A stretch of 64,000 nt of DNA from Lentisphaerota bacterium (GTDB lineage: Bacteria > Verrucomicrobiota > Lentisphaeria > Victivallales > UBA1829), in NCBI GenBank assembly GCA_015061845.1, contig SUVT01000001.1:10953-74952 (forward strand), read 5' to 3'. Both the position numbers and the translations under genes were made by a program. The notes under the pieces were generated by a model that saw only the letters and a program-made list of their open reading frames with translations, made no database searches and was not told the DNA's origin. Positions 32,262 through 61,986 of the stretch are shown in pieces; the first letter of the stretch is position 1; each line of letters opens with the position of its first letter.

Positions 32262-33278
32262 TTACCTACTCGAAATTTCCGGAATTGATTCCTGCCGGAC
32301 GACTTCCGTTTCAATCAGTTTCTGTATCTTCAATTCGGGATTCCGGATTTTTCTTACCAGTTGTTTATACGCTTCGATCCCCGTAAGAAATGGATGCTGC
32401 TCAACGGTAGCTATTGGATAAAAATCGCTGATCCCACGCAGATTACCGAACCCGCCCAGGGCAATTTTTCCCTGCCAATCTATGGATCGCTGATTCAAAC
32501 ATTTGATCAAACGGAACGTATCATCATCAGAACAGGTTAATGCGGCAGTAAAGTCCGGATATTTTTTCAGGATCCGGGACAGGTTGATATTTGCTTCTCC
32601 GACAGAATCTTCATTCAGGATAAATGACCGTTCTTTCCAATCCCGGATCCCAAACTCTTTCATGGCATCAAACATTCCGTCCAGACGTTTCAGATTGTTC
32701 GCAGAATGATAGATCATCACAATATCCCGGTGTCCTTTTTCAAGAACAGCTTTCATGAGCTGGTATCCTCCGGAATAAGAATCACAAGCAACATATTCGG
32801 GAAAAACAGTACTTCCCGCCATATCTTCCAGATAAAGCACCGGCAGCCCCACATCAGGAAGCACCCCGTAATTGGCAGTAAGAATCCCATCTACGGGGAT
32901 CGACCGCAATTCCTGAAGTACGGCATTCATCTGATCCATACCGGGAGAACAGATAGTGACAATGGAGTGATCCTGAATTGCGGCATGCTGGATTCCATAA
33001 GCAATCCGGGAATAGTAGGGAGAATGGATCGCTCCGAAAAAGACAAAGTGATATTTTGGATATTTTCCTGTCCGGAGTACAGTTGTGCCGCCTCTGCCGA
33101 TTCCCCGTTTCACCAGATTTTCTGCTGCAAGCAGGCTTACCGCTTTATTCGCCGTCTTTTTATTGACATTGAACCGTTCCGCCAGTTCATATTCAGAAGG
33201 GAATCTGGTTCCGACCGGATATTTTCCATCACACAACTCTTTTTTCAATGTTGCAACAATACGATCTATCTTTTCCAT
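32262..33278 (-). CDS. GntR-HTH / LacI-type sugar-binding transcriptional regulator
   Basis: FPSEYELAERFNVNKKTANKA HTH; periplasmic-binding-protein-like C-terminus (ATVEQH). Confidence 0.9.
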   Translation of the reverse strand: MEKIDRIVATLKKELCDGKYPVGTRFPSEYELAERFNVNKKTANKAVSLLAAENLVKRGIGRGGTTVLRTGKYPKYHFVFFGAIHSPYYSRIAYGIQHAAIQDHSIVTICSPGMDQMNAVLQELRSIPVDGILTANYGVLPDVGLPVLYLEDMAGSTVFPEYVACDSYSGGYQLMKAVLEKGHRDIVMIYHSANNLKRLDGMFDAMKEFGIRDWKERSFILNEDSVGEANINLSRILKKYPDFTAALTCSDDDTFRLIKCLNQRSIDWQGKIALGGFGNLRGISDFYPIATVEQHPFLTGIEAYKQLVRKIRNPELKIQKLIETEVVRQESIPEISSR

Positions 33279-33305
33279 TATACGCTCCAGTTCTCATTTC
33301 TCATA

Positions 33306-33334
33306 AATATAGCACACATAATCGGATGGGTCAA
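33306..33334 (-). promoter_or_regulatory. Sigma70 promoter of the regulator gene
   Basis: Minus strand TTGACC-17bp-TATATT with TGn extension. Confidence 0.7.
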
Positions 33335-33424
33335 TAAAGTTTTGAAAAAAAATTAAAAATATATTGACAATATGAAATTTTCGATGTATAATAGCAGCGA
33401 GGGATCTTTTAATTGGATGGGTCA
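33324..33424. repeat. 10-bp direct repeat GGATGGGTCA (33324-33333, 33415-33424), candidate operator pair
   Basis: Exact repeat; one copy overlaps the -35 of the leftward promoter, the other lies just downstream of the rightward promoter. Confidence 0.6.
33364..33392 (+). promoter_or_regulatory. Consensus sigma70 promoter
   Basis: TTGACA (33364-69)-17bp-TATAAT (33387-92). Confidence 0.85.
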
Positions 33425-33518
33425 TTTCAAGTTAAAAAAACGAGACCGGATAAATGAGACAATATGAGAAGTTCTCTTGGTTTATCATATTTTCTCTTTT
33501 TATTCTCAAAATAAATAC

Positions 33519-33547
33519 TTGATTTTGCATCCGGAAGCTAATATATT
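33519..33547 (+). promoter_or_regulatory. Possible second sigma70 promoter
   Basis: TTGATT-17bp-TATATT upstream of the prepilin remnant. Confidence 0.4.
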
Positions 33548-33606
33548 TAGAAAGTATTTGATTTTTGGACAATAAGATGATGAAGCAGAGAAAGGATGGA
33601 ACGACG

Positions 33607-33906
33607 ATGAAAAAAACGCTGGAACATGTGACAAAAGACCAGACCCGCCTGAGTGTAAGAATGTTTACCCTGATTGAACTTCTTGTAAATGCTGCTTGTA
33701 AAGTTAGGGTTTCGCCGTTGTTTCAACTCAAAAAATTTGATAAAAACTGCACATCCTTACGCCCGACAGGGCGCACTTCACGTTTGACGCAGTCAAACTC
33801 TTCACACCTTCACATCTTCACTCAATCAGCGTTCACGCTGATTGAACTTCTGGTTGTGATTGCGATCATCGTAATCTCTACCAATAATTGTATCATCGCA
33901 AATTAA
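33607..33906 (+). pseudogene. Truncated prepilin-type gene with two FTLIELLV motifs separated by an in-frame insertion
   Basis: MFTLIELLV...[14 protein letters not shown] then diverges ([11 protein letters not shown]); no globular domain. Confidence 0.7.
33670..33851. mobile_element. Candidate REP/MITE-like in-frame insertion bounded by a 14-bp direct repeat CTGATTGAACTTCT
   Basis: Repeats at 33670-33683 and 33838-33851 (168 bp apart); hairpins CGCCC-GACA-GGGCG (33760-73) and GTTTGAC-GCA-GTCAAAC (33782-98); four CTTCAC copies. Confidence 0.55.
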
Positions 33907-33937
33907 AGTATTTTCACCAACAACGAGAGGTAAAAAA

Positions 33938-34681
33938 ATGAAAAACTGCCAATCAAAAAGAATAGGTTTTACGCTTATCGAATTATTGGTTGTAATTGCG
34001 ATTATCGCAATTCTTGCCGGGATGCTGCTTCCGGCATTGAACAGTGCAAGGGAGAAAGGACGTTCCAGTAACTGTACCAACAATCATAAACAGATCGGCG
34101 GGATGTATTTCATGTATGCCGGAGATAATGATGATATGCTTCCCGGATATTACTACAGCTATTTCAGCAACGGCAATGCCAACAGCTACTGGCATTACAA
34201 ACTGTCGGAAAAATATGGTGGAAAATTCAATTCCAGACAGTTTGTCTGTCCTACGCTTTACGAAAGGATCTACGGTTCCAAAAAAGGGGCTGCCTGGGTA
34301 CAATGCACCTACGGAGCATCCGTTGCAAATCAGAAATTTGCCTATGGATATCTTTCCCTGCCCGCAAGAAAATTATCAAAATTTGCCTATGCTGCACGGG
34401 GCGGAATGATCATAGAAAATTATGGGCATACCATGTGGGAACCGACTACAAGCGGTTTCGATATTGCGACACTTAACGGAACGGGAACATACCGGACAGC
34501 CTTTGTGCATAATGATCGCGCAAATGTCACTTTCGTTGATGGTCATACAGAAGCCAGACAGAAACGGGAAATTCCTGATGATCAATCTTATCCGGATCTT
34601 GCCAAAACGGTTTGGATCAACACGATCTTTTTCCGTTCAGAGAAGCCGCTTGCCGGCTGGGCAACCATCGAAGGACTGTAA
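33938..34681 (+). CDS. Prepilin-type N-methylation / H-X9-DG (DUF1559-like) pseudopilin
   Basis: G|[46 protein letters not shown] (H-X9-DG). Confidence 0.92.
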
Positions 34682-34691
34682 GAAAATAATC

Positions 34692-34787: not shown

Positions 34788-35819
34788 GTGAAAAAACTTT
34801 TACTCTTTGCAGGTGTTTTTTTGCTCCATGCTGCACTTTCCGCACAAATGAAGGAGCTATCCTTTTATGAAGTGCGTCCCAGAACAGGGGAAATCGTTAT
34901 CGATGGAAAGATCGGCGTGAAAGAGTGGCAAAATGTCCCTGTCCACAGCAACTATTACGAATATTACAAAGACAATCCCAAGCCCGGTGAGCTGAAAACC
35001 ACATTCCGCATGGTCTATGACGACAAAGGGATCTACATGGCAGTCGTCAATTTTGATGATAACATTCCCGGTTTGAAACGGAATATCACAGAATATGACA
35101 ATATGGATATCTGGCTGGATGACTGCGGAGAATTTCATTTTGACCCCTTTGCGAACGGGATCAGTTATACAAAGTTCACCATCAATGCAAACGGTGCGTT
35201 CCATGATATGCGCCGTCAGGATACCGCAGTTTATCTGCATGACTGGAGCGGTTATGGAACTGTAACTGCTGCGACAATCGGAAAAGATGCCTGGTATGTA
35301 GAGGCCTTCTTCCCCTGGGATAATCTCAACGGTGTCGCAAAGAACGGGTCTCTCTGGCAGTTCTGTCATACCCGTTACTCCTGGACAAAGAAATTCCGCG
35401 GGATGGTCTCTTCTCCCGGCGGGAACTACAATGCGACAGACAAGTTCGGATATCTCTATTTCTCCGATGGGAAAACAAAACTTGCGCCGGAAAAAATCGG
35501 TTCTCTTCTTCAAACGAAAGCAGCTGTTCCGTGGTGTATTCCCTATGGAAATACACTGGTCAGTTGTACAGGCAGCGGTCTGAAAATGGATGATCTTTCC
35601 GGGCTTCTGAAAGTTGAACGCGAAAAGTACCGGCTCAGCCTCATGGAGATCTCCGCTCTGAACGACAAATCCGTAGAAAAAGAACTTACCAAAATCAAAA
35701 AATCTGTAAGCGATCTTGAATCTTACGGAGGAATGGCGTTCTACAATGCATGTCTCAAAGCAAATGAAGAACTCTTCAATCTGAAATGGAAGATCCTCTT
35801 CAAGAAAAATTTCCAATAA
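34788..35819 (+). CDS. Secreted CBM9-like/DOMON sugar-binding domain protein
   Basis: Signal peptide; IDGK...EW, YDDKGIY, DDCGEFHFDP, WYVEAFFPW. Confidence 0.75.
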   Translation: MKKLLLFAGVFLLHAALSAQMKELSFYEVRPRTGEIVIDGKIGVKEWQNVPVHSNYYEYYKDNPKPGELKTTFRMVYDDKGIYMAVVNFDDNIPGLKRNITEYDNMDIWLDDCGEFHFDPFANGISYTKFTINANGAFHDMRRQDTAVYLHDWSGYGTVTAATIGKDAWYVEAFFPWDNLNGVAKNGSLWQFCHTRYSWTKKFRGMVSSPGGNYNATDKFGYLYFSDGKTKLAPEKIGSLLQTKAAVPWCIPYGNTLVSCTGSGLKMDDLSGLLKVEREKYRLSLMEISALNDKSVEKELTKIKKSVSDLESYGGMAFYNACLKANEELFNLKWKILFKKNFQ

Positions 35820-35837
35820 CAGTATAAAAGGTGAAGT

Positions 35838-38800
35838 ATGAAAAAACTGTTTTTTACAGCTTGTCTCCTCGCTGCGTCGCTGACTTATGCGAAGCATGAC
35901 GGTTGGTATGTCAATAAATTGACAGAAAATTACAAAACGCCCCATTTGACCTGGGATAAAACCACTCCGCCGCTGAAAGTATTGTTTTTCATTCAGCCCA
36001 CGGGAGCCCGTGATGTTGTTGAACTTGCTCAGAGAATGAATATCAAATACACTCCGTTTATCACAAATACTTATTATTCATACACTTCCAACAGTGTTTA
36101 CCGGGCAGCTCTTTCAGGGACCTCCGAGTTTGAAAAAAATGAAGAGATCCGCCAGAAAGCAGCTCAGGATCTGGATGTGATCTTTATCGGAAACGCCCCT
36201 TTCACCAAGGTACCGTCCGATATTCAATACCAGATCATGCTGAAAGTTCACAGCGGAACCGGTCTGGTCGTTCACGTTACCAAACTGCCGTTCAAGAAAT
36301 TGACAGCCAATCCGATTCCCCTGCCCGATTTTCTGAAAGAAGTCATTCCGCCTCTGGATCAGAAATATCTGAAAGCATACCAGTTCGGCAAGGGAAGAGT
36401 TCTCATGATCAATAATCCGAAATACATGTACACTCCGGCACTTGCCAGTTCCTATTATGCAACAGACAACCGTGCAAAAGCCATTCAGGAAAATGATTTT
36501 GTCTTCCTGACCCGTGCAATGCAATGGGCTGCCGGGAAAGATATCTCCACCGGGATCGTGACCGATAAAGGCACCTGGCTTTCCGCTCCCGACGGTGCAA
36601 ACTACAGGATCCGTGATGAATTCAACAACATCCTTGCAACAGGAACTGTAAAAAACGGAAGGATCGACTTCAGCAATCATACCGACGGAAAATATTTCTG
36701 CGATATCATTGTCAAAGGAAAAGCCTGCAGTGTGTTCCCGTTTGAACGGAAATCTGTTCTCGGGAAAGCAAAATTATCCGTCTCAGCAGAATATCTCCGG
36801 GGAAAAGCTCCGTTCAAAGGAACATTTGCGCTGGAAAAAGCCTCAGAAAAGCCTTTGACTCTTACTCTGACATTGACAGATTCTCCTCATGCACGGATCT
36901 GGGAAAAGAAAACGATCCAGCTCCCTGCCGGAGAAAAAACAGTCTCCTTTGAATTCAAAAACTACCGTATGCCTACAGAAGCAGGTTTTCTCTATGCAAC
37001 AGTTACCGATAAAGACGGAACTGTGATCGCCAGAGCTGATAAGGATATGTATTTCCCCTCTGCGGTTCTTCCTGAATATTTTCAGACGACATTCGGGACT
37101 GCCTCCAGCATCAACATGGCAAATCAGCTTGTAGACAATCTCGGATTCGGATTGGCTCTTGGGTGTCCGGATATCAAAGGAAGCAAACAGTTTGCCCAGA
37201 AAAACCTGCAGATGGTCTGCTATCTCGTCCGCATTGCCATGGGAAAAGGACCTGAAGGAAATGTCAAACTGCAGTTCCTCACTTCCCAGGAAGCAAAAGA
37301 AGCTGCAAAACTCAAAGATCACAGTGTTTATAATCCGGTTCTCAGAGAACTCTGGAAAAAACAGGTCATGAGAAAATTGGATGGGGTAATCAGAGTTTCA
37401 CCTATTCTTTACAGTCTCGGTGACGAAAACGTGTTGAGCGTTTCCGGCGGTTACGGAGCCTCCGACCTCCCGGCTTTCCGTGCATTCCTGAAGAAAAAAT
37501 ACGGTACCATTGCAAAACTCAATGAAAACTGGAACCGTTCTTATCAGAGCTTTGATGAAGTCCCCAACCGGGATCTCACCGTTTCTCTGAAAGAAAAGAA
37601 TTATCCGGAATGGAACGATCACATCGAATATATGGAACGGCAATTTGCTGATCTTCACCATTATACAGCTGATTTGATCAAATCCAAAGATCCCCACGCC
37701 AAAGTCGGACTGGAAGGAACGTTCGGAAATCATAACATTGAAATGATGATGGAAAAACTGGATTGGTGGGGACCCTACACCAATGAACTGGAAGACCAGG
37801 TTCTGCGGAGTCTCTTCCCCAACGTTCCCCGGTTCGTCTGGTCCGGTTATCACGGTGAACGCGGAATGAAATCACCGCTGATGAGCCGCTACATCCTGCT
37901 GGGATCTGTCAACGGAAACGGCTGGTATGCAACAGCTACCGACTTCAACCACGACATTCTCTCAGTGGATCAGTCACCCTCTTTCAACAAAACTTTCATG
38001 GCGGAACTTCAGAGACTTCGGATGGGACTCGGACGCACCCTTGTTGCCAATCCTATGTTCGATTCCAAGATCGGGATCTACTGGAATCACATCTCCCGCA
38101 GATCTCCGAAAGTTGATGAACGCTGCATCTCTCCGGAAACCGGGATCACTCCGCTGATCCGGTTCAGCAATAAAACCGGTGCTGGCTTTGAATTCGTCAC
38201 CGCCAAAAACGGGAAAGAACGTCTGCCGAAAATCAAAGTCCTCTTCCTTTTCGGAATCCATGCAATGAGCGATAAAGAAGCGGAAATGATACTGGATTTT
38301 GTGAAAAAAGGCGGAACCGTGATTGCAGACTTCGCACCTGCCAGACTGAATGAAAATCTTGCAGTCAGAGACCATAATCCGCTGGCAGAGTTGTTCGGAA
38401 ACCAGACTTTGCAGGAAAAGAACAAGTACGTTGTCAAGGCGATTTCCATTCCCGGATTCAAGGCTTCCAAGGCTCTCGTAGATCCTTCCCGGCCTCTCAT
38501 GCAGGTCAGAACCTACGGAAAAGGAAAAGCGATCCTGACAAATTTCAACTTCGGGATCGTGGAAACTTCTGCGGATAAATCTACCCCGTTCACCGGATTT
38601 GTGAAAGATCTGCTGGTCAAACACGGCGCTGTCATCCCCTTCAGCCAGACAAACCAGAACAGCCTCTTCCGGGTCAGAACCGGAAAAGATTTCACCTTGT
38701 TCGGTGTTTATGAAAACAGGGATAACAGCAACACAACGATCAAACTGCCTGAATCAAAATATATCTATGAATCAGGCGTTGGCTTCGTCGGAAAACAGTC

Positions 38801-39140
38801 TGAAATCACAGCGGAATTTTCTCAGGCTGTTCCGTTAAGGGTCTATGCAGCATTTGAGAAAGAACAGGAAGCTCCGATCCTGAAAGCACCCCGTACCGTC
38901 AAAGCCGGGGAAAATGTTCTTCTCTCTTACAAAAACCTTCCTGCCGGACGCACGATCGTGATCCGCGTAACCGCACCCGATGGCAAGGAAATGATGGGAA
39001 GAACCGTGATCACAAGTACAGATCAAAGCAAAGAATACAGCTTCGGGATTCCCTATAATGCTGCAAAAGGCACTTACAAATTCACCGTCATGGATCATAT
39101 CACAGGTCTTGCATCTGTAAAGAGTGTAACCATTAAATAA
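35838..39140 (+). CDS. Secreted GH42-like (beta-galactosidase-type) glycoside hydrolase with trimerisation domain
   Basis: Signal peptide; LGDE, FRAFLKKKYGTIAKLNENW, FVKKGGTVIAD. Confidence 0.72.
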   Translation: MKKLFFTACLLAASLTYAKHDGWYVNKLTENYKTPHLTWDKTTPPLKVLFFIQPTGARDVVELAQRMNIKYTPFITNTYYSYTSNSVYRAALSGTSEFEKNEEIRQKAAQDLDVIFIGNAPFTKVPSDIQYQIMLKVHSGTGLVVHVTKLPFKKLTANPIPLPDFLKEVIPPLDQKYLKAYQFGKGRVLMINNPKYMYTPALASSYYATDNRAKAIQENDFVFLTRAMQWAAGKDISTGIVTDKGTWLSAPDGANYRIRDEFNNILATGTVKNGRIDFSNHTDGKYFCDIIVKGKACSVFPFERKSVLGKAKLSVSAEYLRGKAPFKGTFALEKASEKPLTLTLTLTDSPHARIWEKKTIQLPAGEKTVSFEFKNYRMPTEAGFLYATVTDKDGTVIARADKDMYFPSAVLPEYFQTTFGTASSINMANQLVDNLGFGLALGCPDIKGSKQFAQKNLQMVCYLVRIAMGKGPEGNVKLQFLTSQEAKEAAKLKDHSVYNPVLRELWKKQVMRKLDGVIRVSPILYSLGDENVLSVSGGYGASDLPAFRAFLKKKYGTIAKLNENWNRSYQSFDEVPNRDLTVSLKEKNYPEWNDHIEYMERQFADLHHYTADLIKSKDPHAKVGLEGTFGNHNIEMMMEKLDWWGPYTNELEDQVLRSLFPNVPRFVWSGYHGERGMKSPLMSRYILLGSVNGNGWYATATDFNHDILSVDQSPSFNKTFMAELQRLRMGLGRTLVANPMFDSKIGIYWNHISRRSPKVDERCISPETGITPLIRFSNKTGAGFEFVTAKNGKERLPKIKVLFLFGIHAMSDKEAEMILDFVKKGGTVIADFAPARLNENLAVRDHNPLAELFGNQTLQEKNKYVVKAISIPGFKASKALVDPSRPLMQVRTYGKGKAILTNFNFGIVETSADKSTPFTGFVKDLLVKHGAVIPFSQTNQNSLFRVRTGKDFTLFGVYENRDNSNTTIKLPESKYIYESGVGFVGKQSEITAEFSQAVPLRVYAAFEKEQEAPILKAPRTVKAGENVLLSYKNLPAGRTIVIRVTAPDGKEMMGRTVITSTDQSKEYSFGIPYNAAKGTYKFTVMDHITGLASVKSVTIK

Positions 39141-39152: not shown

Positions 39153-40235
39153 ATGAAAAAACTTCTCATTTTTGCCGCAGCTGCTGCAATGATCGGGCTT
39201 TCCGCAGGAGAACCCGCAATAAAACTTACGGAAAAACAGATCAACAGAAAAGGGGTCAAGTTGACCAGAAAATCATGGAAAGTGAATTTTCATCATTCCA
39301 CTTTGACCTTCAGCAATACGCTCTCTCCGGAAGGAAAACTCATCACAAGTGCATGGGATGATCTTTTTCTCGGTATCGGTCATGGAAGTATCAACAATGG
39401 CTCCTGGGATGGATGGAACTTCCTCTCTGCCCAGGGGATCAAGTCAAAGCCTTTGCCGGGTGCAGCACCCGCTTCCAAGGTGGATCTCGTTCGTTATAAC
39501 GACAGTTCTTCTGTAAATATCAACTGGCAGAATGGACAGTTCCGGATTCTTCAACAGGCAAATACACCTGCATGGCTTTATGTAAAAGTTACCATTCCCG
39601 AAGGAATCAAAGAGGTGACTCTTCGTGTTCGTCCCGGCGGTTCTCATTACAACATCAAAGGCAGGGAACGCTGGATCCGCTACAATGGAGCAGATTTTGA
39701 AAGTAAAGGCTGGAGTGCCAAAGCCTTTATGCCTGCTGCCGGCGTTGACGGCATGACATTTTTCAGCAGAAATTATAATGAAAAATATGGAAATCTTCTT
39801 GTTTTTGAATCTGCAAAAGTGGAAAAAATCACATATCGCTGTGAAAATCCGATCTACATCTCTTTCTATGCAAAGCCGGGTGTAAAGGAAATGAATTTTG
39901 CGCTCAGTTACTTCAAGAACGAAGATGCTGAAAATGCGATGAAACGCTTCCTTGTGGAACAGCTTCCCACAGCAAAAAAAGCGATGGATTCCATTCAGTG
40001 GGATAAAGCTCCGGATTTTACCGAGTTCTCCCGTAATGCAGCTCAAGTCAAGACTCTCATCAGTGGAATTCAAGGTTCAAAGAAAGCCGCGTTTGAAAAG
40101 GAATTTGCAGAAATCAATGCAGCTTACGAAACGGCAAAAGCCAAAAATGATGTTCCCGGCTATACAAATGCGCTGGAACGTCTGCGTAAACTTCAGAAAA
40201 ATGTCGGATCTGCCGCAATGGATCTCCTGAACTGA
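39153..40235 (+). CDS. Secreted hypothetical protein
   Basis: MKKLLIFAAAAAMIGLSA signal peptide, RBS, same operon. Confidence 0.7.
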   Translation: MKKLLIFAAAAAMIGLSAGEPAIKLTEKQINRKGVKLTRKSWKVNFHHSTLTFSNTLSPEGKLITSAWDDLFLGIGHGSINNGSWDGWNFLSAQGIKSKPLPGAAPASKVDLVRYNDSSSVNINWQNGQFRILQQANTPAWLYVKVTIPEGIKEVTLRVRPGGSHYNIKGRERWIRYNGADFESKGWSAKAFMPAAGVDGMTFFSRNYNEKYGNLLVFESAKVEKITYRCENPIYISFYAKPGVKEMNFALSYFKNEDAENAMKRFLVEQLPTAKKAMDSIQWDKAPDFTEFSRNAAQVKTLISGIQGSKKAAFEKEFAEINAAYETAKAKNDVPGYTNALERLRKLQKNVGSAAMDLLN

Positions 40236-40398: not shown

Positions 40399-40455
40399 TT
40401 GACATTTCACCGCTTTATGGTATAATATGTATAATCAGAATAATGTGTATAATCA
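40399..40455 (+). promoter_or_regulatory. Sigma70 promoter with TGTATAATCA direct repeats
   Basis: TTGACA (40399-404)-16bp-TATAAT (40421-26); TGTATAATCA at 40428-37 and 40446-55. Confidence 0.7.
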
Positions 40456-42863: not shown

Positions 42864-42962
42864 AAAACATTGACTGATTTCCGGGCGGACGATCTCAAAC
42901 TGGCACGATGAAGCGGGATCATCCGAACGGCTGTCAGTTCAAATCCAGAACTTATAAACAAA

Positions 42963-43676: not shown

Positions 43677-43704
43677 TTTCAAGTTAAAGAGAAGGATGAT
43701 TTGA

Positions 43705-44274: not shown

Positions 44275-44295
44275 AAAGGAAGGGAAGAAAAGAAA

Positions 44296-51215: not shown

Positions 51216-51226
51216 GGTTGAAACCA

Positions 51227-51256
51227 CCTGACCGGAGAAATAAGTATCCGGTCAGG
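51227..51256. other. Intergenic 10-bp perfect stem-loop
   Basis: CCTGACCGGA-10nt-TCCGGTCAGG. Confidence 0.55.
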
Positions 51257-51275
51257 GAAAAATTGGAGAATAGAA

Positions 51276-52637: not shown

Positions 52638-52733
52638 ACAATACAATGGCGGACGGTGCAATATTTGAGGGATATTCTTTATAACACACTTGGTATCAAG
52701 GAACAACCTTTTGACAGATCATAACTGATCTTT

Positions 52734-53033
52734 GAAGAAACATTATCTTACATGGATTTTCCATCAGAACATTGGCGTAAGATCCGGACAAATAACGGGT
52801 TGGAGCGTATTATGAAAGAGATTCGACGGCGAACAAGAGTTGTTGGCAGTTTTCCTGATGGATATTCTGCAATGATGTTAGTCGGAGCAAGATTACGGCA
52901 TATTTCTACGACAAAATGGGAAGATCGTCAATATCTCGTTTGTAAAATGGAATTTTGGTAATATAGTAAACAAAACGTACATGGTTTTGATAATCGGTCA
53001 AAATAAAATGTGCGCAAAATTTAGGACACTATC
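52734..53033 (+). mobile_element. IS256-family transposase C-terminal remnant with probable right inverted repeat
   Basis: FPSEHWRKIRTNNGLERIMKEIRRRTRVVGSFPDG is the IS256 C-terminal signature; ends ...GTGCGCAAAATTTAGGACACTATC. Confidence 0.85.
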
Positions 53034-53052
53034 ACTCAGGAGAGAAATCACC

Positions 53053-54384: not shown

Positions 54385-54538
54385 TGGAATCTGACAAGGA
54401 AAGGATTGAAATATGTCATGAATCCAGAGATAATTTCATGACAACTGAATCTTTATACAACATGACCTTTACCGGGATCTTGATCCGGAAATCCTGAAAG
54501 CAAAAGAGTTTTTTTAAAACTGACAAAGGAGACTTAAA

Positions 54539-54886
54539 ATGCAAATAAAGAATTATGCAAAAGTTGATTTTTCCGATATTCTCCCCGTCCCGTGTCCCTG
54601 CGGAATGAGCAAACGGGCTTTTATTCAGGAATCAGATGGGGAAGTCTCTTTCCATGTAGTTGAAATCAGTATTGATGCAAAACTGCATTATCATAAAAAA
54701 CACAGAGAGATCTACTATATTTTGGAGGGAAACGGTTTTCTGGAGCTGGACGGCGAAAAACTGGCTGTCGAACCCGGCAGTTCCATCATGATCAACCCTG
54801 GTTGCCGTCATCGTGCATTGGGGAACTTGAAAGTGGTAAACGTTTCTCTTCCCGCCTTTGATCCTGAAGATGAATTTTTTGATTGA
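54539..54886 (+). CDS. Cupin domain protein
   Basis: HYHKKHREIYYILEG...GCRHRA. Confidence 0.88.
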   Translation: MQIKNYAKVDFSDILPVPCPCGMSKRAFIQESDGEVSFHVVEISIDAKLHYHKKHREIYYILEGNGFLELDGEKLAVEPGSSIMINPGCRHRALGNLKVVNVSLPAFDPEDEFFD

Positions 54887-54905
54887 CAGTTTGCCTGAAT
54901 TACGT

Positions 54906-54937
54906 AAAAAAAAGCGGCACCTTTTTATTGGTGCCGC
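54906..54937 (-). terminator. Rho-independent terminator for the heparinase-like gene
   Basis: GCGGCACC/GGTGCCGC stem preceded by A8 on + (U-tract on -). Confidence 0.7.
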
Positions 54938-54961
54938 CGCAAAGGAATTGTTTTCCCGGGA

Positions 54962-56878
54962 TCATTTCTCCTCAAAGGTGATTTTATAATCATTTCCGGT
55001 ACTTTTCAATTCAACGGCTGTCAGTTTTTCCCAGTAACGCCCCAAATCTCTGGGAGAAAGTTTCTGCAGCTTGATCCCGTGCAGAACTATTTTCACATCG
55101 CCAAGCAAAATCGTATTGTCAGAAAGCACCTGAACGCTGCAGGGGGTCAGGAACGTCACGGTTGCAGGAAGAGAAGCTGAAGTTGCAAACTGATCAGAAA
55201 GAGACACTTTATTTTCTGAGAAATCAACACTCCGTTTGAAACTCTTTACCCCGGCTTTTTCCGGATATGCGTTTCCAAGATCCACTGTGATATTCTTCCG
55301 GTCAACCCGGAGGAACTTTGCGGTATATTGACGTCCAACCACCTGTTCACGGGAACCGAAAACAGGGGCATTGTGTCCGGAACCTCTTGTGTACCATAAG
55401 GTATAACGCTTATTGGAAAAATTAGTCCTTGTATAAACTCCAGAACCGGCATCAATGATGATCGGTTGATTTTTGAAATAAAGAGTGACATGCCCGAGGT
55501 CATTATGACCGTGAAGCTCCTGATTATGTCCGGCTTTAACGGCAACGGAAAACCCTTTGGAACGGAGAATCGCAAGGCGGTCCTTGAACAGGGAAAACGG
55601 TTGAATCTCACAATTGTTATTCTGTAATTCCGGAAGTTCAAAGAGAAGTTTCATACAGTTGCTGAGGTGATTTGCACTTTCCCCGAGAGTGAATTCTGAA
55701 TCTTTATTATTCAATCCTTTCAGAGGAGCGGATTTCAGGATTTCTCCGCAAATCGGAACATTGACCTCTATGGTGGGATATGGACCGTTATCACCATAAT
55801 TCACCACATGGTTATCCCCGATCCCCACATGGGAAATATATTCAAAAATTGCCCGGACACGGGGCATGGAGAATACTTTATCCATGCTGCCCGGACGGAT
55901 TTTGTGGAAAAGATACAGGGAAGAAAACACCTTCAACCCGGCTTTCGTGAAATAAACAGGCCCCTCTTCACAATAGCCGTCATCGGTATAATGGTATGTA
56001 AAATTAGCATTGATATTCAAAAATTCCCGGAGAAAAGCTGCTGTTCTTGCAGGATCTTTTTCCAAAAATACAGCGACGATGCTGTTATTGTAAGAACACC
56101 AGACACTCCAGTTGGACTTTTGGGATAATCTCCACCAGGTCATTTCTTTCGTCAGAGGGTGGTACATGATGGAATAAAGAGTCCGTTCCAAAGTTACAGT
56201 CCGGATTCGTTCTGAAAGATTTTCAATGTATTTATCGAATTCTGCTCCGAGGATATGGTGAAGGATCGCCATTTGCGCCCCGGTTTCCGAGGCAAAAAGA
56301 TCCGCACGGGGACGGTCAAACAAGAATTTTTTCTTGAAATCCCATTGGGCATGGGCGGGAACACACCAGTAAGATTCTTCCAGGATCGCCAGCACATGAT
56401 CCAGCAGCCGGGGCATATATTTTTCTTTATCGCCAGTCAGACAAAGAGCAAGAGAAAGATAAGCCATCTGTTTCCGACGCTGGTAATAGGGTGTTTGATA
56501 ATCGACTCTGTTGCCATCCGTGACAAAACGGCGGTAGTTGCTGAAAAGAAGCTGCGGGACCTGATGTTCCGGGACCGCATCAGCCAGCTTGATGATCTGA
56601 TCCGCATATTTGCTCTGCCGTGCTTTTTCCCATGCTTTGCGGTCCGAAAAGACCGGATAGAAATTACGGGTGAACTCGCCCTTTGCAATTTTTTCAAAGA
56701 GGTCTGTTGGAAGAGATGCATCAAAGTATGCAGCTCCATCCAATTTCGGTGAATAAACAGCATTTTTCCTGATATTTTCCTGCCATTGCTCCTGTATTGT
56801 CTGAGCATCGTTGACTGAGCCGTGAAGAATGCTTGCAAAACATCCCGCAATTCCGGCAAGCAGAATAGAATATTTCAT
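54962..56878 (-). CDS. Secreted heparinase II/III-like protein (polysaccharide lyase-like)
   Basis: Signal peptide; WCVPAH, DLFASET, NWSVWC, DDGYCEEG, HGHNDLG, DAG, GHNAP. Confidence 0.82.
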   Translation of the reverse strand: MKYSILLAGIAGCFASILHGSVNDAQTIQEQWQENIRKNAVYSPKLDGAAYFDASLPTDLFEKIAKGEFTRNFYPVFSDRKAWEKARQSKYADQIIKLADAVPEHQVPQLLFSNYRRFVTDGNRVDYQTPYYQRRKQMAYLSLALCLTGDKEKYMPRLLDHVLAILEESYWCVPAHAQWDFKKKFLFDRPRADLFASETGAQMAILHHILGAEFDKYIENLSERIRTVTLERTLYSIMYHPLTKEMTWWRLSQKSNWSVWCSYNNSIVAVFLEKDPARTAAFLREFLNINANFTYHYTDDGYCEEGPVYFTKAGLKVFSSLYLFHKIRPGSMDKVFSMPRVRAIFEYISHVGIGDNHVVNYGDNGPYPTIEVNVPICGEILKSAPLKGLNNKDSEFTLGESANHLSNCMKLLFELPELQNNNCEIQPFSLFKDRLAILRSKGFSVAVKAGHNQELHGHNDLGHVTLYFKNQPIIIDAGSGVYTRTNFSNKRYTLWYTRGSGHNAPVFGSREQVVGRQYTAKFLRVDRKNITVDLGNAYPEKAGVKSFKRSVDFSENKVSLSDQFATSASLPATVTFLTPCSVQVLSDNTILLGDVKIVLHGIKLQKLSPRDLGRYWEKLTAVELKSTGNDYKITFEEK

Positions 56879-57021
56879 ATTTTACTCTCCTTTGTTTCTA
56901 TCATTTTCTGTTTTGGAATTATGTAAGTTCATAAGCATTACGCTTACAGTTTACTATAGGTTTTCCACAGGTATTTATCAAGCAGGAAACAGCAAAAAAC
57001 TGAATAAAAAACGATATAAAA

Positions 57022-57241
57022 ATTAAACAGTTTGAGCAGTATAGCAGAAGGATTTTTTTTACAAAAACATGTGATAATAAAACATTTCTGACAGATGTAA
57101 AAAACTGATGTTTTTTATCGCGGCTGATTTGCAGGCTCAACTGTTCAAAAAAAATTTCTTTTGATTAAACAGTATTTGAAAACATCTGTCAAACAGTTTA
57201 TCTTTATGCAGAGTTTGAAACAATATGGGGAGATAAACAGT
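57022..57241. promoter_or_regulatory. Divergent intergenic region with repeated AAACAGT motif and a 10-bp inverted repeat
   Basis: AAACAGT at 57025, 57167, 57191, 57235; TGACAGATGT (57089-98) / ACATCTGTCA (57182-91). Confidence 0.45.
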
Positions 57242-57242
57242 C

Positions 57243-58286
57243 ATGGATAAAACCGAATCAAACCAGAAAAGGATCTACAGGTCTCTGCTGGCAAATATCC
57301 GGAACAAAGTTTATCCGGAGGGAGAATTCCTGCCGTCACTCCGCAAACTTGCAAAAATCTATTTCAGCACACCGGGGACAGTACGGCAAGCGTTGATGAA
57401 GCTTCAGGATGACGGACTGATCACGGCTCATCAGGGGCTTGGTTACTGTGTGAATGTTCCCAAGCCTCAATCAAAAAAGATTTTGATTCTGGAACAAACC
57501 AAAAGTGCGCATCTGTATGGTAATTTTCTGAGTGAACTTTGTGCCTGTATTCAGGAATATCCGGAATATGCTGTTCTGCTGGAAGATACCATCCGCTACA
57601 AAAACGAGCCGGAAAAACTCTATGAACGGCTTCTTTTATTTGCAGATCAATATGAAGCGATCTTTTTCGACGGGTATGATGTAAGACTTCCGGCAGAGGC
57701 GTTTTCTGAACTCAAAAAAAGAACAAAGCTGTTCTATTATTTTGATGCAAACGCCAACGCAGTAACAGTCGGGATCCCGGGGGTTTCCACGGATTGGAAC
57801 CATGGAATGTATATCGGAGTCCGTCACCTGATCGACTGCGGCTGCCGCCGGATCCTTGTGCATACAGGATGGAATGTATCAAGCGATGGCGCATTCGCGG
57901 CTGTCAAGGACTCCTGCAAGGATGTGGAGCTGATCCTTTCGGAAGACAGACTGGTGGATTTTTACAAGATCGTTGAGAGTGAAACCTTTGACGGAGTTTA
58001 CAGTTCACAGGACATTGTGGCAGTAAGAGCGATTGCGATTCTCAGGAAACGCGGATTCAAAATTCCCGGAGATATTGCCGTTATAGGCTATTACAACACC
58101 CCATGGTGTGAACATCCATTCTGCCCACTGACTTCTATCAGTATCAACGAAAAAGAGATGATCCGGAAAACATTTGATATGTTTCTTCAAAACAAAAGTT
58201 CAGGGCAAATCTTTGTCTTGCCCTCTCTGGCGATCCGAAATTCAACAACTGATTTTATAAAAAACAAAAAGAGAAAGGAAATATGA
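57243..58286 (+). CDS. GntR-HTH / LacI-type transcriptional regulator
   Basis: LPSLRKLA...TVRQAL..L HTH; [15 protein letters not shown]. Confidence 0.9.
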
Positions 58287-59059
58287 TGATGACAAACAAA
58301 ATGACAAAATCTGTTCAGCACCTCTTCCGCAAGCAGACAAAGCAATCGTACTTTACCTTGATTGAACTGCTTGTTGTGATTGCCATTATTGCAATTCTCG
58401 CAGGAATGCTGCTGCCGGCGTTGAATAATGCCAGAGCCAAGGGCTGGAGTGCTTCCTGTACATCCAACCTGAAACAGGCTGGTGTGATATTCGGAAATTA
58501 TGCATCTGACAACAATGATTTCATGCCGTACAGATATTTTAAGAAATCAAATGAGAAAATTTCCCCATTCTATACTCTTTTTGCTGCCGGGTATACGGAT
58601 ATAAAAAAGAATGGCGTTTCTATCAAAATCTTTGATTGTCCCGGAGATCGGTCAAGGGAATTTGGTAAAGTCGCAAATGGTACAATGAACTATGATTGGC
58701 AGAAAGAAAATAAAAAATCCGTAAACCGCAGTTACGGCGTTCAACAATTGCTCGGCTATTTTGTGAATCCTCCGAAGTATTATTCTCCGTTTAAATTCGG
58801 AAAGGGAAATGTAGCAATGACAAGAATCATTCTCATGGCTGATACTCATGATTATACCGCCGAATCAAATCAAACTGTATATGGTCTTCAGGATTTCAGT
58901 TCAAAGAGAAGTACAATGATGCCGGATTCCCACCATCAGGGGTCCGATAATGTCCTTGCTGTTGCAGGGAATGTCAGATCCTTCAGGGGAGAATATTTCT
59001 GGAAGAACAAAGTGTTTTTTGAAGAACCGAAATATACACAATTCACCTATGAGCCGTAA
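58283..59059 (+). CDS. Prepilin-type N-methylation (DUF1559-like) pseudopilin
   Basis: Y|[51 protein letters not shown]. Confidence 0.9.
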
Positions 59060-59127
59060 TAAAAGAAATATTGCAGGCTGTATTTCAGATAACAGATTCA
59101 ATATTCAACTGAGAAGGAGTAAAAACA

Positions 59128-61986
59128 GTGAAACGACTATTCATTTCAGCAGCAATTCTGGCAATTTCTGCATTGAACGCAGCAGAATTTTATCTTGTGC
59201 GTGATTCCAAACCGACAGCACAAATTCAAATCGGGAACGATCTTGACAAGGCAAGTCTGGAACAGATCGATCTTTTCAATACATATTTGAAAAAAATTAC
59301 CGGTTCCGCCCTGCCCAAAAACGGGAAAGCCCTGCCCTATACCATTCAGATCGTCATTGATAAGAATGTAAAACTGGGAAAACATCATGACTGGAAAATC
59401 GAATTTCCGTCTGAGAAAGTAATGAAGATCACAGCTTCTCAGCACTCCATTTTCCAGGCTTTGAACATGCTGTTGGAAAAAGGAGCTGACACCCGTTTCC
59501 TCGGTGCAGAAAAATGTATGTTCCAGTATGAACCCAGAAAGCATGTCTCGGTTGAAACGAAGATGATGAAGTCTGCGGAAGGCTACTCTCTGCATCGCAG
59601 TATCTGGTATCAGGCAAATCATAACATCGAACTTGGGATTTATGACAAAGCCGGATTCCAGCACGGTCACGGGCTCCCGGTTTACGCTTTCCCGGCGCAC
59701 AAATACAAAAAAGGCTGGCCCGAAGCGATCATGCCTGTTTTGCGCGGAAAGAAACTTGTCAAACCGGCAAGTCTCTACAACAGATGGCAGCCTTGCTATT
59801 CCAATCCGAAAACAGCAAAGGAAGCTGCAAAAAACATTCTTGAGATCCTGAAAAACAATCCGCAGCCGTCCATCACTCTCGGCTGCAATGACAATGGAGG
59901 ATTCTGCCAATGCAAAGACTGCCTTGAGATGGATAAAGGGCTCCGCCGCAGCATTTTTATCAATGACAAATCCAACCACTCTCACAGCTATTATACATTC
60001 GTTAACAGAGTCGCTGAGATCGTCTGCAAAGAATATCCTGATTTGAAGATCGGACTTCTTGCCTACACCGGAACCATTATGCCGCCGGCGTTCCCGGTTC
60101 ATAAAAATGTTGTACCGGTCATGACACTTGACTCTGTTCTCAGTGCCTTTGATCCTGCCGTCAAAAAAAGACATTACGGTGTGATCAAAGAGTGGGGTGA
60201 AAAGGTTCCCAATACAGGTATCTGGGATTACTCCTGGGGCAGAAATTATATCATTCCCCGGGTCAACTTCAAGAATCATGCCGCTTTGCTGAAATATCTT
60301 TATGCCAACGGCGGACGCTCCTACTTTGCGGAAAACCGTATGATGGATATGCTCGACGGACCGAAATTCTATCTCGTCAGCCGTCTGTTGAAAGATATCA
60401 ATGCTGATCCCGATCAGATCCTGGAAGAGTGGTACATCCGTTTTGCCGGAAAAGATGCCGCACCTCATCTGAAAAAGATTTATCAGCTGTCTGAAAATTA
60501 CTGGCTCTCTGCAGAAATGAAAAAAACTCCGATTTACCGCGCACGGAATTATATTTATGCCTATGCCAACGAAAACCACATGTTCGCACTGAAACCGGGT
60601 TTTACCAAACAGCTGGTCGATCTTGCGATCAAGGTGAATGAACTTGCCAAAACACCCGGTGAAAAAGCCCGCGCCGCTCTGCTGCTCCGCCACATGGAAA
60701 ATGTCGACTGTGAAGCATCTTTCAAAGGAATGGCATACCGTGCATCCGACAACGGCGAATTCCGTACTGTCAAAGATACTATTGCATACTTCAATTTCCT
60801 GAAGAGTGATATGCCCCGTCTTCTTGCTCAGCACAAACGGGCAACTGCATACTTCACCAATCCGGATTTCGGTAAAGAGTTGCAGAATGTTTATATCAAA
60901 CGCAGAATGTATGAAACCGATGAAAGCGTTCTGATCACCGCCGGTCTGTTGAAATCCATACGCTATCTTGAGTCCAAAGAAGTGCTGAAAAGCCTGAAAA
61001 CTTTGGAGAGCATCCCCGGACTTCCGAAAAATGTGAAAGATATGATCGGTCTCATCACACTGGGAGACAAGGCGAAAAACCATTTCTGCAACCCCGGTTT
61101 GACTAAGCCGGTGTCAACGATGAGGATCAAAACTTCTGTTCCTTATGAGATCACCGATAAAGTTCTCTGCAACGGACAGAAGACACTCAAACTCATGCCT
61201 GCACAGCCCAAAGGGGTGCCGAATCCCGATGATAACATGCTCAGCCATGTTGTCTCCTTTACGATCACAGAAGATCTCAAGCCGGGGATCTGGGCTGTTT
61301 CCATGAAGGTGAAAACTCCGTCAAAACAGGCGATCATGGATCTTTCTCTCTGGCCCTGTGTCGATGGCAGAAACAAAAATTGGGAAGATTTGCGTCAGAT
61401 CAAGATCCCTGCAAACCAGTGGCAGGTCTTTACGCAAGTCGTAACGGTCAGAGTCGTCCACACCGGAGCCAATATCATTATCCGTCCTTCCAATTTCAAG
61501 AAAGATGAACCGCTTTACATCGGTGACATTCGTTTGATCCGCATCGGCGATGCCGCTGTCAGCAAAGAAGAGGCAAAACGGAATTACACTGCAACTAAAA
61601 TAAAAAGAAGAGGTGGCTCCGTCATGGGCGAACTTTTTGGCAAAAAAGCTGTGATCAATAAAAGTCCGAAAGGACAGGTGCAGTTTGCCCATGTTCAGTT
61701 CCGCTGGTATGGCACCTCCCTGAACGTGACAGTGAGTGCCGCGCGTCCGGCAGACAGCAAATCCGGACAGATCGGCATAGGGATCTGTGAATTGCAGGAC
61801 GGTAAATGGGTCCCGAAATCCACTCCTTTGTGGAACAGAAAACTTTCCAATAAGGGCTTTGAACAGATCAAGGTCAAAGTCAGTGGAAAAGGTATGAAAA
61901 TCGGTGCCAAATATCTGATGATCTTCTACAAGATGAACGGAACAGAAGCCGCCGCGATTTCCGATGTGACCATTGAATACAAGTAA
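59128..61986 (+). CDS. Secreted DUF4838-type putative glycoside hydrolase with C-terminal CBM-like domains
   Basis: Signal peptide; YLKKITG, QPCYSNP, NDNGGFCQCKDC, LLAY. Confidence 0.72.
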   Translation: MKRLFISAAILAISALNAAEFYLVRDSKPTAQIQIGNDLDKASLEQIDLFNTYLKKITGSALPKNGKALPYTIQIVIDKNVKLGKHHDWKIEFPSEKVMKITASQHSIFQALNMLLEKGADTRFLGAEKCMFQYEPRKHVSVETKMMKSAEGYSLHRSIWYQANHNIELGIYDKAGFQHGHGLPVYAFPAHKYKKGWPEAIMPVLRGKKLVKPASLYNRWQPCYSNPKTAKEAAKNILEILKNNPQPSITLGCNDNGGFCQCKDCLEMDKGLRRSIFINDKSNHSHSYYTFVNRVAEIVCKEYPDLKIGLLAYTGTIMPPAFPVHKNVVPVMTLDSVLSAFDPAVKKRHYGVIKEWGEKVPNTGIWDYSWGRNYIIPRVNFKNHAALLKYLYANGGRSYFAENRMMDMLDGPKFYLVSRLLKDINADPDQILEEWYIRFAGKDAAPHLKKIYQLSENYWLSAEMKKTPIYRARNYIYAYANENHMFALKPGFTKQLVDLAIKVNELAKTPGEKARAALLLRHMENVDCEASFKGMAYRASDNGEFRTVKDTIAYFNFLKSDMPRLLAQHKRATAYFTNPDFGKELQNVYIKRRMYETDESVLITAGLLKSIRYLESKEVLKSLKTLESIPGLPKNVKDMIGLITLGDKAKNHFCNPGLTKPVSTMRIKTSVPYEITDKVLCNGQKTLKLMPAQPKGVPNPDDNMLSHVVSFTITEDLKPGIWAVSMKVKTPSKQAIMDLSLWPCVDGRNKNWEDLRQIKIPANQWQVFTQVVTVRVVHTGANIIIRPSNFKKDEPLYIGDIRLIRIGDAAVSKEEAKRNYTATKIKRRGGSVMGELFGKKAVINKSPKGQVQFAHVQFRWYGTSLNVTVSAARPADSKSGQIGIGICELQDGKWVPKSTPLWNRKLSNKGFEQIKVKVSGKGMKIGAKYLMIFYKMNGTEAAAISDVTIEYK

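Follow-up and report, generated by a model that had tools for sequence, protein, structure and literature searches.

Pilin-like genes head sugar-regulated operons of secreted, CAZyme-like proteins in Lentisphaerota, and one pilin subfamily carries a putative inversion switch

Introduction

In guts and sediments, complex glycans are broken down without SusC/SusD by Lentisphaerota, Kiritimatiellia and related bacteria, and how such cells handle polymers at their surface is the question raised by the DNA analyzed here: a 64,000-nucleotide stretch of the genome assembly of a gut Lentisphaerota bacterium (GCA_015061845.1, contig SUVT01000001.1, positions 10,953 to 74,952; C31:10953-74952 in our labeling), hereafter the window. 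An earlier note on this DNA described three modules in which a GntR/LacI-type regulator is followed by a prepilin-type protein (hereafter, pilin) and by secreted proteins resembling carbohydrate-active enzymes (CAZymes), and proposed that each pilin is a substrate-specific subunit that plugs into a shared filament to capture or import glycan. The related DUF1559 proteins have been described only as numerous paralogs without a known function (PMC10632474, PMC2754498), with 68 of them in P. limnophila (PMC10632474). Here, we find that the order of sugar-type regulator, pilin, in some cases a small protein resembling a carbohydrate-binding module (CBM), and one or more large Sec-secreted CAZyme-like proteins very probably recurs throughout this genome and across Lentisphaerota. 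We also describe a DNA inversion that very probably connects and disconnects the start of the pilin gene in one subfamily.

Results

Three pilin-headed modules in the window

A Pfam scan of the 21 open reading frames (ORFs) between 32.2 and 63.9 kb of the window bore out the three modules. The proposed order, regulator and then pilin, holds for modules 2 and 3, but in module 1 the regulator lies on the minus strand, divergent from the pilin. Regulator 1 (32262-33278, minus strand) combines a GntR domain (7.9e-12) with a LacI-type sugar domain (Peripla_BP_3, 3.5e-9). Pilin 1 (33938-34681, plus strand, as are the features that follow unless stated) has 247 amino acids (aa) and matches N_methyl (2.8e-8) and PF07596 (24.4 bits, cut-off 23.3). 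Behind it lie a CBM9-like secreted protein (34788-35819; PF06452, 1.3e-6), a GH42-like secreted protein of 1100 aa (35838-39140; a partial match to PF02449, 2e-6) and, as the last gene of operon 1, a 360-aa protein with no Pfam match (39153-40235). The Sec-type N-terminus of the CBM9-like protein was judged by a crude rule, as were all those mentioned below. The promoter region of operon 1 (33324-33424) contains a perfect sigma-70-like TTGACA-17-TATAAT at 33364-33392 (12/12 consensus). On either side of it stands a direct copy of GGATGGGTCA (33324-33333 and 33415-33424); these two copies are candidate operators.

Module 2 opens with another perfect sigma-70-like promoter (40399-40426; 12/12, extended TG) 5' of regulator 2 (40462-41598; GntR helix-turn-helix and Peripla_BP). 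A GH130 mannoside phosphorylase-like gene (41799-42863; PF04041, 1.5e-46), whose product has no signal peptide by the crude rule, separates the regulator from pilin 2 (42963-43676; 237 aa; PF07596 36.1 bits, N_methyl). It is followed by a CBM4_9 secreted protein (43705-44274; PF02018, 4.4e-12), a GH123_N-containing secreted protein of 1109 aa (44296-47625; PF19543, 3.4e-24), and an FAD-dependent oxidoreductase of 1197 aa together with GH4 (47622-52637; PF12831, 1.9e-96; PF02056, PF11975). In module 3, regulator 3 (57243-58286; GntR helix-turn-helix and Peripla_BP_3) overlaps pilin 3 (58283-59059) by 4 nt at its stop; this pilin has 258 aa, with N_methyl at 21.6 bits and PF07596 at 16.7 bits, below the cut-off, and is followed by a DUF4838 secreted protein of 952 aa (59128-61986; PF16126, 2.4e-34). 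The tail of a fourth module (62115-64000, minus strand) comprises a 206-aa protein and a 1159-aa GH42-like protein; the CBM9 gene and the pilin of this module are found past the end of the window (C31:77180-78803).

As the earlier note had stated, no TonB receptor, SusD or ATP-binding cassette (ABC) importer was found among the 21 ORFs (Pfam; E<=0.01 for SusD). The sole ABC-related match was a sub-threshold one, ABC_transp_aux at 23 bits (cut-off 34.7), on the GH42-like protein at 62752-63912.

Pilins lie beside regulators and glycan-related genes beyond chance

The source assembly (labeled G000; 3.21 Mb, 169 contigs, completeness 82.7%, contamination 1.5%) yielded 2511 genes with a codon-usage scorer. 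The neighborhood counts are based on 84 full-length pilin genes marked by their N-terminal motif, and a profile of the three window regulators found 47 regulators of 300-470 aa genome-wide. Three pilins in 30 kb amount to about three times the genome density, a modest excess; the non-random part is the adjacency of pilins to regulators and CAZyme-like genes. Permutation and Fisher tests placed this adjacency beyond chance. With motif-defined pilins, 18 of the 47 regulators were adjacent to a pilin and 29 were within two genes, against permutation means of 3.1 and 5.7 and maxima of 10 and 12 in 1000 permutations. With pilins defined by profile (see below), the counts were 20 and 31 of 47; for the latter, 500 permutations gave 6.7 on average and 13 at most. 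Seen from the pilins, the gene at position -1 encoded a transcription factor in 33 of 84 cases (18 GntR-PBP, 9 LacI, 5 AraC and 1 GntR-SBP).

For the genes around the pilins, we assembled a set of 202 neighbors at positions -1, +1 and +2, excluding pilins and profile-type regulators themselves, and a control set of 120 genes from 15 random 12-kb regions, 104 of them more than two genes away from any pilin. Pfam families grouped as glycan-related (E<=1e-8) were present in 61 of 146 genes at +1/+2 compared with 9 of 104 controls (Fisher p 2.4e-9), and seven of those nine control genes sit three to five genes from a pilin. The families at +1/+2 were DUF4838 (20), GH123_N (13), Laminin_G_3, CBM9, GH42, SGNH esterases, GH78-like and others. 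A same-strand protein of at least 700 aa stood at +1/+2 for 59 of 84 pilins, a length that 10.4% of all genes reach, and nearly all downstream proteins had Sec-like N-termini. The gap between the pilin and the next gene was operon-like (median 21 nt; at most 60 nt in 68 of 78). At other loci, domains corresponding to the small CBM9, CBM4_9 and LamG proteins at +1 form the N-terminal part of the big enzyme itself; the pilin is thus always located 5' of a binding module and a catalytic module, whether these are separate or joined.

Many of the proteins of 800-1330 aa with signal peptides behind pilins had no Pfam family at E<=1e-5 (for example L001:1-2529, L002:1-3081, L006:1470-4538, L054:1-3993 and L063:1-3411). 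They are a potential source of new enzymes and may belong to new enzyme families.

Recurrence of the layout in other Lentisphaerota

One genome was scanned for each species, which gave 78 loci. Twenty-eight of these, with 35 pilins, were labeled Lentisphaerota, Victivallales or Oligosphaeraceae, and 50, with 55 pilins, came from other phyla. Among the 35 Lentisphaerota-labeled pilins, a regulator stood at -1 in 13 cases and within two genes in 17, and a same-strand protein of at least 600 aa stood at +1/+2 in 20. The corresponding numbers for the 55 pilins of other phyla were 0, 0 and 7. Glycan-related matches (E<=1e-8) were present in 15 of the 36 downstream proteins of the Lentisphaerota-labeled loci, in DUF4838, GH123, GH42, GH43, GH78, GH36N, heparinase-like, pectate-lyase-like, LamG and sulfatase families. 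A metagenome-assembled genome of Victivallis vadensis, for example, has a regulator, a pilin and a 728-aa protein in this order (L158). From these counts, the layout is a trait of Lentisphaerota that draws on an older family of the Planctomycetota-Verrucomicrobiota-Chlamydiota (PVC) bacteria.

Outside Lentisphaerota, 9 of 55 pilins were followed by a small same-strand protein of 100-200 aa, several of them with signal-peptide-like N-termini (L091, L113, L118, L119, L145, L153, L156 and others, in Verrucomicrobia and Planctomycetota). The small protein looks like a different, possibly older, partner of the pilin.

One invariant stem carries divergent pilin heads

A profile built from 63 pilins had 106 matches in the genome, about 100 of them pilin-like genes of 150-340 aa. 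The identical 25-aa N-terminus that had been noted in the three window pilins is real, with 14-18 of 75 nt differing among the trio, but it is not specific to this locus and is common to 80 called genes genome-wide. Residues F1, T2, L3, I4, E5 and the next 20 are invariant in these 80 paralogs and are encoded by 80 distinct 75-nt sequences with a mean pairwise nucleotide identity of 0.80 (0.67-0.97). One stem protein sequence written in 80 different DNA sequences argues for purifying selection on the protein rather than gene conversion. The heads are approximately 30% identical and retain a Cys pair, two Tyr and the His of the H-X9-DG region. The H-X9-DG motif itself, which the earlier note had attributed to this protein class, is canonical by eye in pilin 1 but reads H-X9-GG in pilin 2 and H-X9-AG in pilin 3.

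The N-terminal methylation/cleavage motif (F+1, E+5, hydrophobic helix) is present, with PF07963 in all three window pilins. Among the 63 aligned paralogs, 62 matched PF07963 and TIGR02532, 49 matched PF07596, mostly over the first 65 positions of the 268-position model, and 17 matched TIGR04294 (all at E<=0.01); in the three window pilins, there was no match to TIGR04294 at E<=1e-4. The head alone was placed with DUF1559 clusters at 0.97 in the Atlas language-model feature search. Judged by their sequences, the window pilins appear to be divergent DUF1559 members. GspG was the top NCBIfam family for 62 of 63 pilins, over the N-terminal part only; against the GspG model TIGR01710, whose cut-off is 88.85 bits, the window pilins reached 24-34 bits. 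The real GspG of this genome scored 159.8 bits, and its N-terminal helix is unlike the 80 identical pilin N-termini. Neither the window pilins nor the aligned paralogs matched a solute-binding-protein (SBP) family, and no small major pilin with the same N-terminus was found in a six-frame motif search.

Gly at position -1 is the classical requirement of the prepilin peptidase. The window pilins have Gly (pilin 1, 33965-33967), Asn (pilin 2, 43029-43031) and Tyr (pilin 3, 58349-58351) at this position, and across the 80 genes Gly occurs in only 4, alongside Ser (15), Cys (11), Lys (8), Ala (8), Asn (8) and others. GspG, GspI and GspJ of the same genome also have Ser, Lys or Pro instead of Gly; the missing Gly may therefore be a lineage trait, which suggests that the prepilin peptidase of this lineage may have an unusual specificity with no need for Gly.

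An AlphaFold (AF2) model of pilin 1, made from the paralog alignment (predicted local distance difference test 75.4, predicted template modeling score 0.74), has a pilin alpha/beta-roll fold. In a structure search independent of Foldseek, the first 21 matches were pilins or pseudopilins with modest Z scores of 6.2-3.0, led by PilA4 (6.2), the enterotoxigenic Escherichia coli (ETEC) type IVb pilin (5.0) and EpsG (4.9); Foldseek against PDB gave no match to the model at E<=1e-3. The earlier proposal that the head captures or imports glycan found no support here: no lectin, CBM or solute-binding fold was among the structure-search matches of pilin 1. Many pilins are directly followed by a separate CBM-like protein, which could take on the binding in place of the pilin itself.

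A putative inversion switch acts on the pilin start

Six-frame motif matches outside genes revealed a foldback in one pilin subfamily, in which the start of a pilin gene, from its ribosome-binding site through ATG and leader to the first residues, runs into its own reverse complement. Its center is formed by the IAIIAI codons, which can be written as an 8-1-8 palindrome (ATTGCGATTATCGCAAT in window pilin 1). Downstream of it, at a distance of 135-137 nt, a second core adjoins the pilin body; foldback and second core occur together at five loci. In the ON state, the body stands behind its own ribosome-binding site, ATG, leader and FTLIE, and an upstream mini-ORF ends past the foldback; window pilin 1 and the pilins on contigs C131 and C85 are ON. 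In the OFF state, the start cassette faces away and the body opens with FAVIQLLVV or FAMIQLLVV, with no start codon, leader or Glu5; C11, C125, C126 and C29 are OFF, and C98 and C119 are degenerate. The switch sites in G000 are window 33832-34012, C11:7294-7461, C125:28843-29010, C126:630-790, C85:35589-35749, C131:10749-10931, C29:1070-1260 and C98:14088-14134.

In the window, the putative invertible segment (33868-34003, plus strand; 136 nt, ON) holds the start of pilin 1 as far as its first residues, with ribosome-binding site, ATG and leader. In the fixed left arm, F1 (33832-33906, plus strand), a second copy of the sequence encoding the pilin N-terminus continues into the reverse-complement arm and then stops. 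The N-terminal copy in this mini-ORF lies 106 nt 5' of the pilin N-terminal coding sequence (33968), and the same geometry is seen at C131 and C85.

Inversion of 136-137 nt in silico swapped intact and start-less genes, in either direction, at all four loci with both cores recognized; at C126 and at the window copy, one core only was recognized. With up to two mismatches allowed, the two-armed foldback pattern had seven sites in G000, five in the same-genus genome G001 and none in the other 39 relatives, including a second same-genus genome. A reversed-pattern control had no matches. The short pattern IAIIAITT was rejected as a marker of the switch; it occurs in 24 of 41 genomes but matches the antisense strand of ordinary pilin genes.

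Both orientations were found in orthologous loci. C125 of G000 and C214 of G001 have collinear flanks (95.5% and 97.3% identity) around a middle that aligns reversed at 92%, and the pilin is intact (ON) in G001 and start-less (OFF) in G000, the protein being otherwise near-identical. The ortholog pair C126 and G001:C221 shows the same state in both genomes. For C11 and C85, the search for switch-locus orthologs in G001, G002 and G010 gave paralog-level or repeat matches only. In the window copy, the left core has degenerated (three mismatches to the foldback pattern), so this copy may be decaying in the ON state; flipping was not seen at the copy itself.

The operon 1 promoter lies approximately 540 nt upstream of the pilin 1 ATG, outside the invertible segment, so the switch would act on the translation start of the pilin and not on the operon promoter. 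These data indicate that inversion very likely connects and disconnects the pilin start in this subfamily while the promoter and enzyme genes stay in place. No recombinase gene stands beside any switch; genome-wide, there were three Phage_integrase (tyrosine) matches, on C160, C153 and C100, and one truncated serine recombinase away from the switches. A metagenome scan found no stretch with the C125 pilin body and four with the foldback, none close to the source genome and none with a second core that fits our motif, and these carry no information on flipping.

Repeats at pilin 5' ends

A repeat of approximately 210 nt (33664-33875, plus strand) starts and ends with the same 14-residue coding sequence and has 12 copies in the genome (blastn). 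Nearly all of these lie directly 5' of pilin genes, often at contig ends, and several can be read in frame as a 60-77-aa leader. Related genomes carry the repeat at 78-95% identity.

A second repeat of approximately 168 nt, resembling a miniature inverted-repeat transposable element, had 110 blastn matches in the genome (e.g., C85:34826-34993) and dozens at 90-99% identity in same-genus genomes, where it is found at many contig ends of G001, G002 and G010. In one place, the repeat separates a pilin from its DUF4838 gene.

Importers and candidate assembly machines

The earlier note expected TonB receptors and sugar importers to be missing around such loci, and both expectations held beyond the window. 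PF00593 had no match genome-wide in this 82.7%-complete assembly, and no sugar importer was encoded among the 202 neighbor proteins. Genome-wide, there were seven matches to BPD_transp_1 (ABC permease), three to SSF and none above the cut-off to MFS_2; MFS_1, Sugar_tr, the phosphotransferase system (PTS) and genome-wide SusD were outside this search.

The genome encodes machinery that could assemble pilins: eight secretin matches, five T2SSE ATPases above the cut-off, T2SSF platform proteins and one prepilin peptidase. A single canonical type II secretion system (T2SS) on C129 comprises GspD, E, F, G, I, J, a probable K and GspM (NCBIfam). A set like that of type IV pili on C163 has two PilB-like ATPases, PilT (463 bits) and PilC, and at C66:35206-42231 two tandem Amuc_1098-family secretins (864 and 1002 aa) stand with an Amuc_1099-family protein. 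Tad genes are also present. Each of these four is a candidate machine for pilin assembly, and the Amuc_1098-type secretins are candidate outer-membrane ports for the pilin family.

Other features of the window

Short contigs from gut metatranscriptomes of one study match the window at 90-99% identity, and those of run X1 cover 30 of 30 bins of 42001-62000. One RNA-library contig (57957-58334) spans the junction of regulator 3 and pilin 3; this is weak evidence of joint transcription, as contigs cannot prove a single transcript and DNA carry-over is possible. Peaks of RNA depth at pilin N-termini result from cross-mapping of paralogs. Another peak, seen in all four runs, falls on a fragment of approximately 295 nt between GH4 and the next gene (52732-53030) and arises because the fragment is repeated elsewhere, with three copies on C152 and one or more on C30. 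Its reading resembles the C-terminal part of what we take to be an IS256-type transposase.

Upstream of the modules, at approximately 16700-28700, lies a minus-strand polysaccharide-synthesis cluster with GT2 glycosyltransferases, a pyruvyl transferase, a UDP-glucose/GDP-mannose dehydrogenase and a pair of ABC_tran and ABC2_membrane proteins. The latter is an ABC-2 type exporter and no sugar importer. Rfam at gathering thresholds found no family in the window.

Discussion

The loci are best explained as sugar-regulated polysaccharide-degradation operons of a PVC bacterium that lacks SusC/SusD, in which the pilin would be the first structural gene. As to the role of the pilin, we tentatively prefer that of an exchangeable building block in a common type IV filament at the cell surface, in the service of the secreted enzymes of its operon or of their substrate; we consider this role plausible but somewhat short of probable. 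Once an operon was induced, its pilin would be processed and built into the common filament alongside the pilins of other induced operons, and its variable head would act at the cell surface, keeping the CBM protein and enzymes of the operon, or the glycan substrate, near the cell. An identical stem in all paralogs points to co-polymerization into one machine. ON/OFF control by inversion, confined here to the pilin, is usually seen for exposed structures on which phages or hosts exert pressure, and this favors a surface filament over a purely periplasmic pseudopilus.

Several observations count against this preference. Processing, assembly, surface exposure and the binding of glycan or enzyme are predicted steps. 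Gly at -1 is rare, the model of the pilin 1 head gave no glycan-binding fold, and the two orientations of the switch were seen between two genomes rather than within one population. Approximately 30 of the 84 pilins have no recognizable glycan-related gene at +1/+2, and a few stand in unrelated contexts, beside an arginine kinase, SecG or a TIR protein. We defined the glycan-related category ourselves from Pfam families, and E-values for the +1/+2 test set were copied by hand. The claim of a substrate-specific subunit on a shared filament stands in part: the stem under purifying selection fits it, but the heads track the enzyme family weakly. In a quick tree of the heads, the downstream enzyme family changed 28 times, compared with 32.4 on average after shuffling (28 or fewer in 3 of 300 shuffles), and with named families only it changed 10 times compared with 13.8 (minimum 9). 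Such weak correspondence, itself slim evidence in either direction, is unlike tight pairing of pilin and enzyme.

The pilin could instead work in the periplasm, as a cargo-specific pseudopilin of the T2SS that recognizes the Sec-exported enzymes of its operon and pushes them out. The downstream proteins, nearly all Sec-type, large, multidomain and hydrolase-like, are the usual cargo of a T2SS, and the pilin precedes them at operon-like spacing. The genome has one complete T2SS, and GspG is the NCBIfam family that the pilins resemble most in their N-terminal part. We nevertheless think such a secretion adaptor rather unlikely, because the genuine GspG has a different stem and a cut-off far above the window pilins, the heads follow the enzyme family weakly, phase variation would be unusual for a periplasmic part, and an inversion to OFF with the cargo still transcribed would strand enzymes in the periplasm. 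In a different proposal, the head binds the target glycan and a PilT-powered filament reels it in through a secretin, replacing capture and import by SusD/SusC. We know of no precedent for polysaccharide import through pilus retraction. The head has no lectin, CBM or solute-binding fold, and dedicated CBM9, CBM4_9 and LamG proteins behind many pilins could bind instead. The missing TonB receptor and the few ABC permease and SSF matches would suit import, although with MFS_1, Sugar_tr and PTS left out of the transporter search the import capacity is charted in part. A PilT-family ATPase beside two PilB-like ATPases and PilC, eight secretin matches with two of the Amuc_1098 family, and variable heads on an invariant stem would suit it as well. 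Phase variation by inversion, according to the accessible part of one source, is also known for SusC/SusD pairs of Bacteroides fragilis (PMC9881135). On balance, we hold import to be improbable.

Two further explanations dispense with a filament or with glycans. The pilin could be an uncleaved inner-membrane anchor, N-terminus in and C-terminus out, whose periplasmic head chaperones, docks or senses the products of the operon. The rarity of Gly at -1 and the failure to find a small major pilin with the same N-terminus agree with this, and the family is named SBP_bac_10 in Pfam, which echoes an early idea that its members bind solutes. An anchor is nonetheless highly unlikely: a stem invariant from F1 to E5 and over the next 20 residues is typical of processed, packed pilins, the canonical pseudopilins of the same genome likewise have no Gly at -1, and the head has a pilin fold and not that of a binding protein. 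Least likely of all, in our estimate, is that the arrangement has no glycan-specific meaning and that pilins and repeats are mobile, duplicative 5' cassettes in front of highly expressed secreted-protein operons. Repeats do cluster at pilin 5' ends (the 12 copies of the 210-nt repeat, the foldbacks and the 168-nt repeat with its 110 matches), contigs often break at pilins, and some pilins are in non-glycan contexts. However, the order of regulator, pilin and enzyme, the tight spacing and the intact frames are kept across Lentisphaerota genera, the N-terminus is under strong purifying selection, and OFF copies retain intact, invertible start cassettes.

The preferred reading, an exchangeable filament subunit, has a bolder form that we regard as doubtful, on a par with import: a mosaic, phase-variable glycan pilus, in which one retractile filament would draw on approximately 100 operon-encoded subunits, each for a different polysaccharide or for the enzymes of its operon. 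If true, sugar-responsive regulators, together with DNA inversion at single subunit genes, would determine the composition of this pilus, and the pilus would bring substrate to the cell as a form of selfish glycan capture independent of SusC/SusD.

Few paralog families of PVC bacteria are as large as that of the DUF1559-type proteins, and the layout gives these proteins a testable link to glycan use. As each such pilin is paired with a regulator and defined secreted enzymes, its inducing sugar can be sought, and cultured relatives carry the layout. The switch suggests that pilins are exposed to phage or host pressure and supplies natural ON and OFF alleles of single pilins for direct comparison.

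Our literature searches, which did not cover supplements, found no description of the layout or the switch and no paper on DUF1559 function. The accessible portions of a Kiritimatiellia synteny preprint (10.64898/2026.10.06.756941) and of PMC13526803 make no mention of pilins, GntR, LacI, TonB or type II secretion. The inversion switch at pilin starts is thus newly recognized in this analysis.

Comparison with known systems

The pilins of this genome share a class III signal-like N-terminus and high paralog numbers with the DUF1559/H-X9-DG proteins of PVC bacteria, and most of them (49 of 63 paralogs; pilins 1 and 2 of the window above the cut-off) also match DUF1559. They are shorter (approximately 240 aa), match TIGR04294 in 17 of 63 cases and rarely have Gly at -1. 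The Lentisphaerota genes head CAZyme operons behind sugar-type regulators; such a regulator was seen for 0 of 55 pilins in the other DUF1559 loci sampled.

Like the polysaccharide utilization loci (PULs) of Bacteroidota, each locus combines a substrate-specific regulator with surface or secreted CAZymes, and many paralogous loci occur per genome. PUL regulators in Bacteroidota are of hybrid two-component or extracytoplasmic function (ECF) types, whereas those described here are GntR, LacI and AraC proteins. Bacteroidota PULs are further set apart by their transport components: here, the genome has no TonB receptor, the window ORFs include no SusD, and the recurrent non-enzyme part is pilin-like. 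The accessible part of PMC9881135 reports that some surface components of Bacteroidota PULs are phase-variable by DNA inversion, as are the pilins here.

Among gene-altering programmed inversions, pilin inversion in Moraxella bovis (Marrs 1988, listed in PMC11868660) and the PilV shufflons also use recombination sites inside conserved pilin coding sequence, and there, too, inversion alters the sequence to which the pilin gene is joined (PMC11868660, PMC9881135). The switch described here differs from both in being ON/OFF and in moving a start cassette of 136-137 nt only, with no alternative pilin bodies. Its crossover core consists of the palindromic IAIIAI codons, it has no adjacent recombinase, and there are seven sites in this genome.

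In the archaeal bindosome (the Bas system of Sulfolobus), sugar-use proteins have a pilin-type signal and a filament-like assembly, as far as the accessible text of PMC3047682 describes it, and the genes here suggest a similar arrangement. The bindosome proteins, however, are ABC solute-binding proteins, whereas the head here has a pilin fold and no ABC importer is adjacent. The modular and lectin minor pilins of Streptococcus sanguinis give a filament a glycan-related function, in the accessible parts of PMC9934059 and PMC8179133, much as the pilins of Lentisphaerota may do. There, a few minor pilins are encoded in the pilus locus; here, approximately 100 paralogs, with no lectin module, are distributed over catabolic operons.

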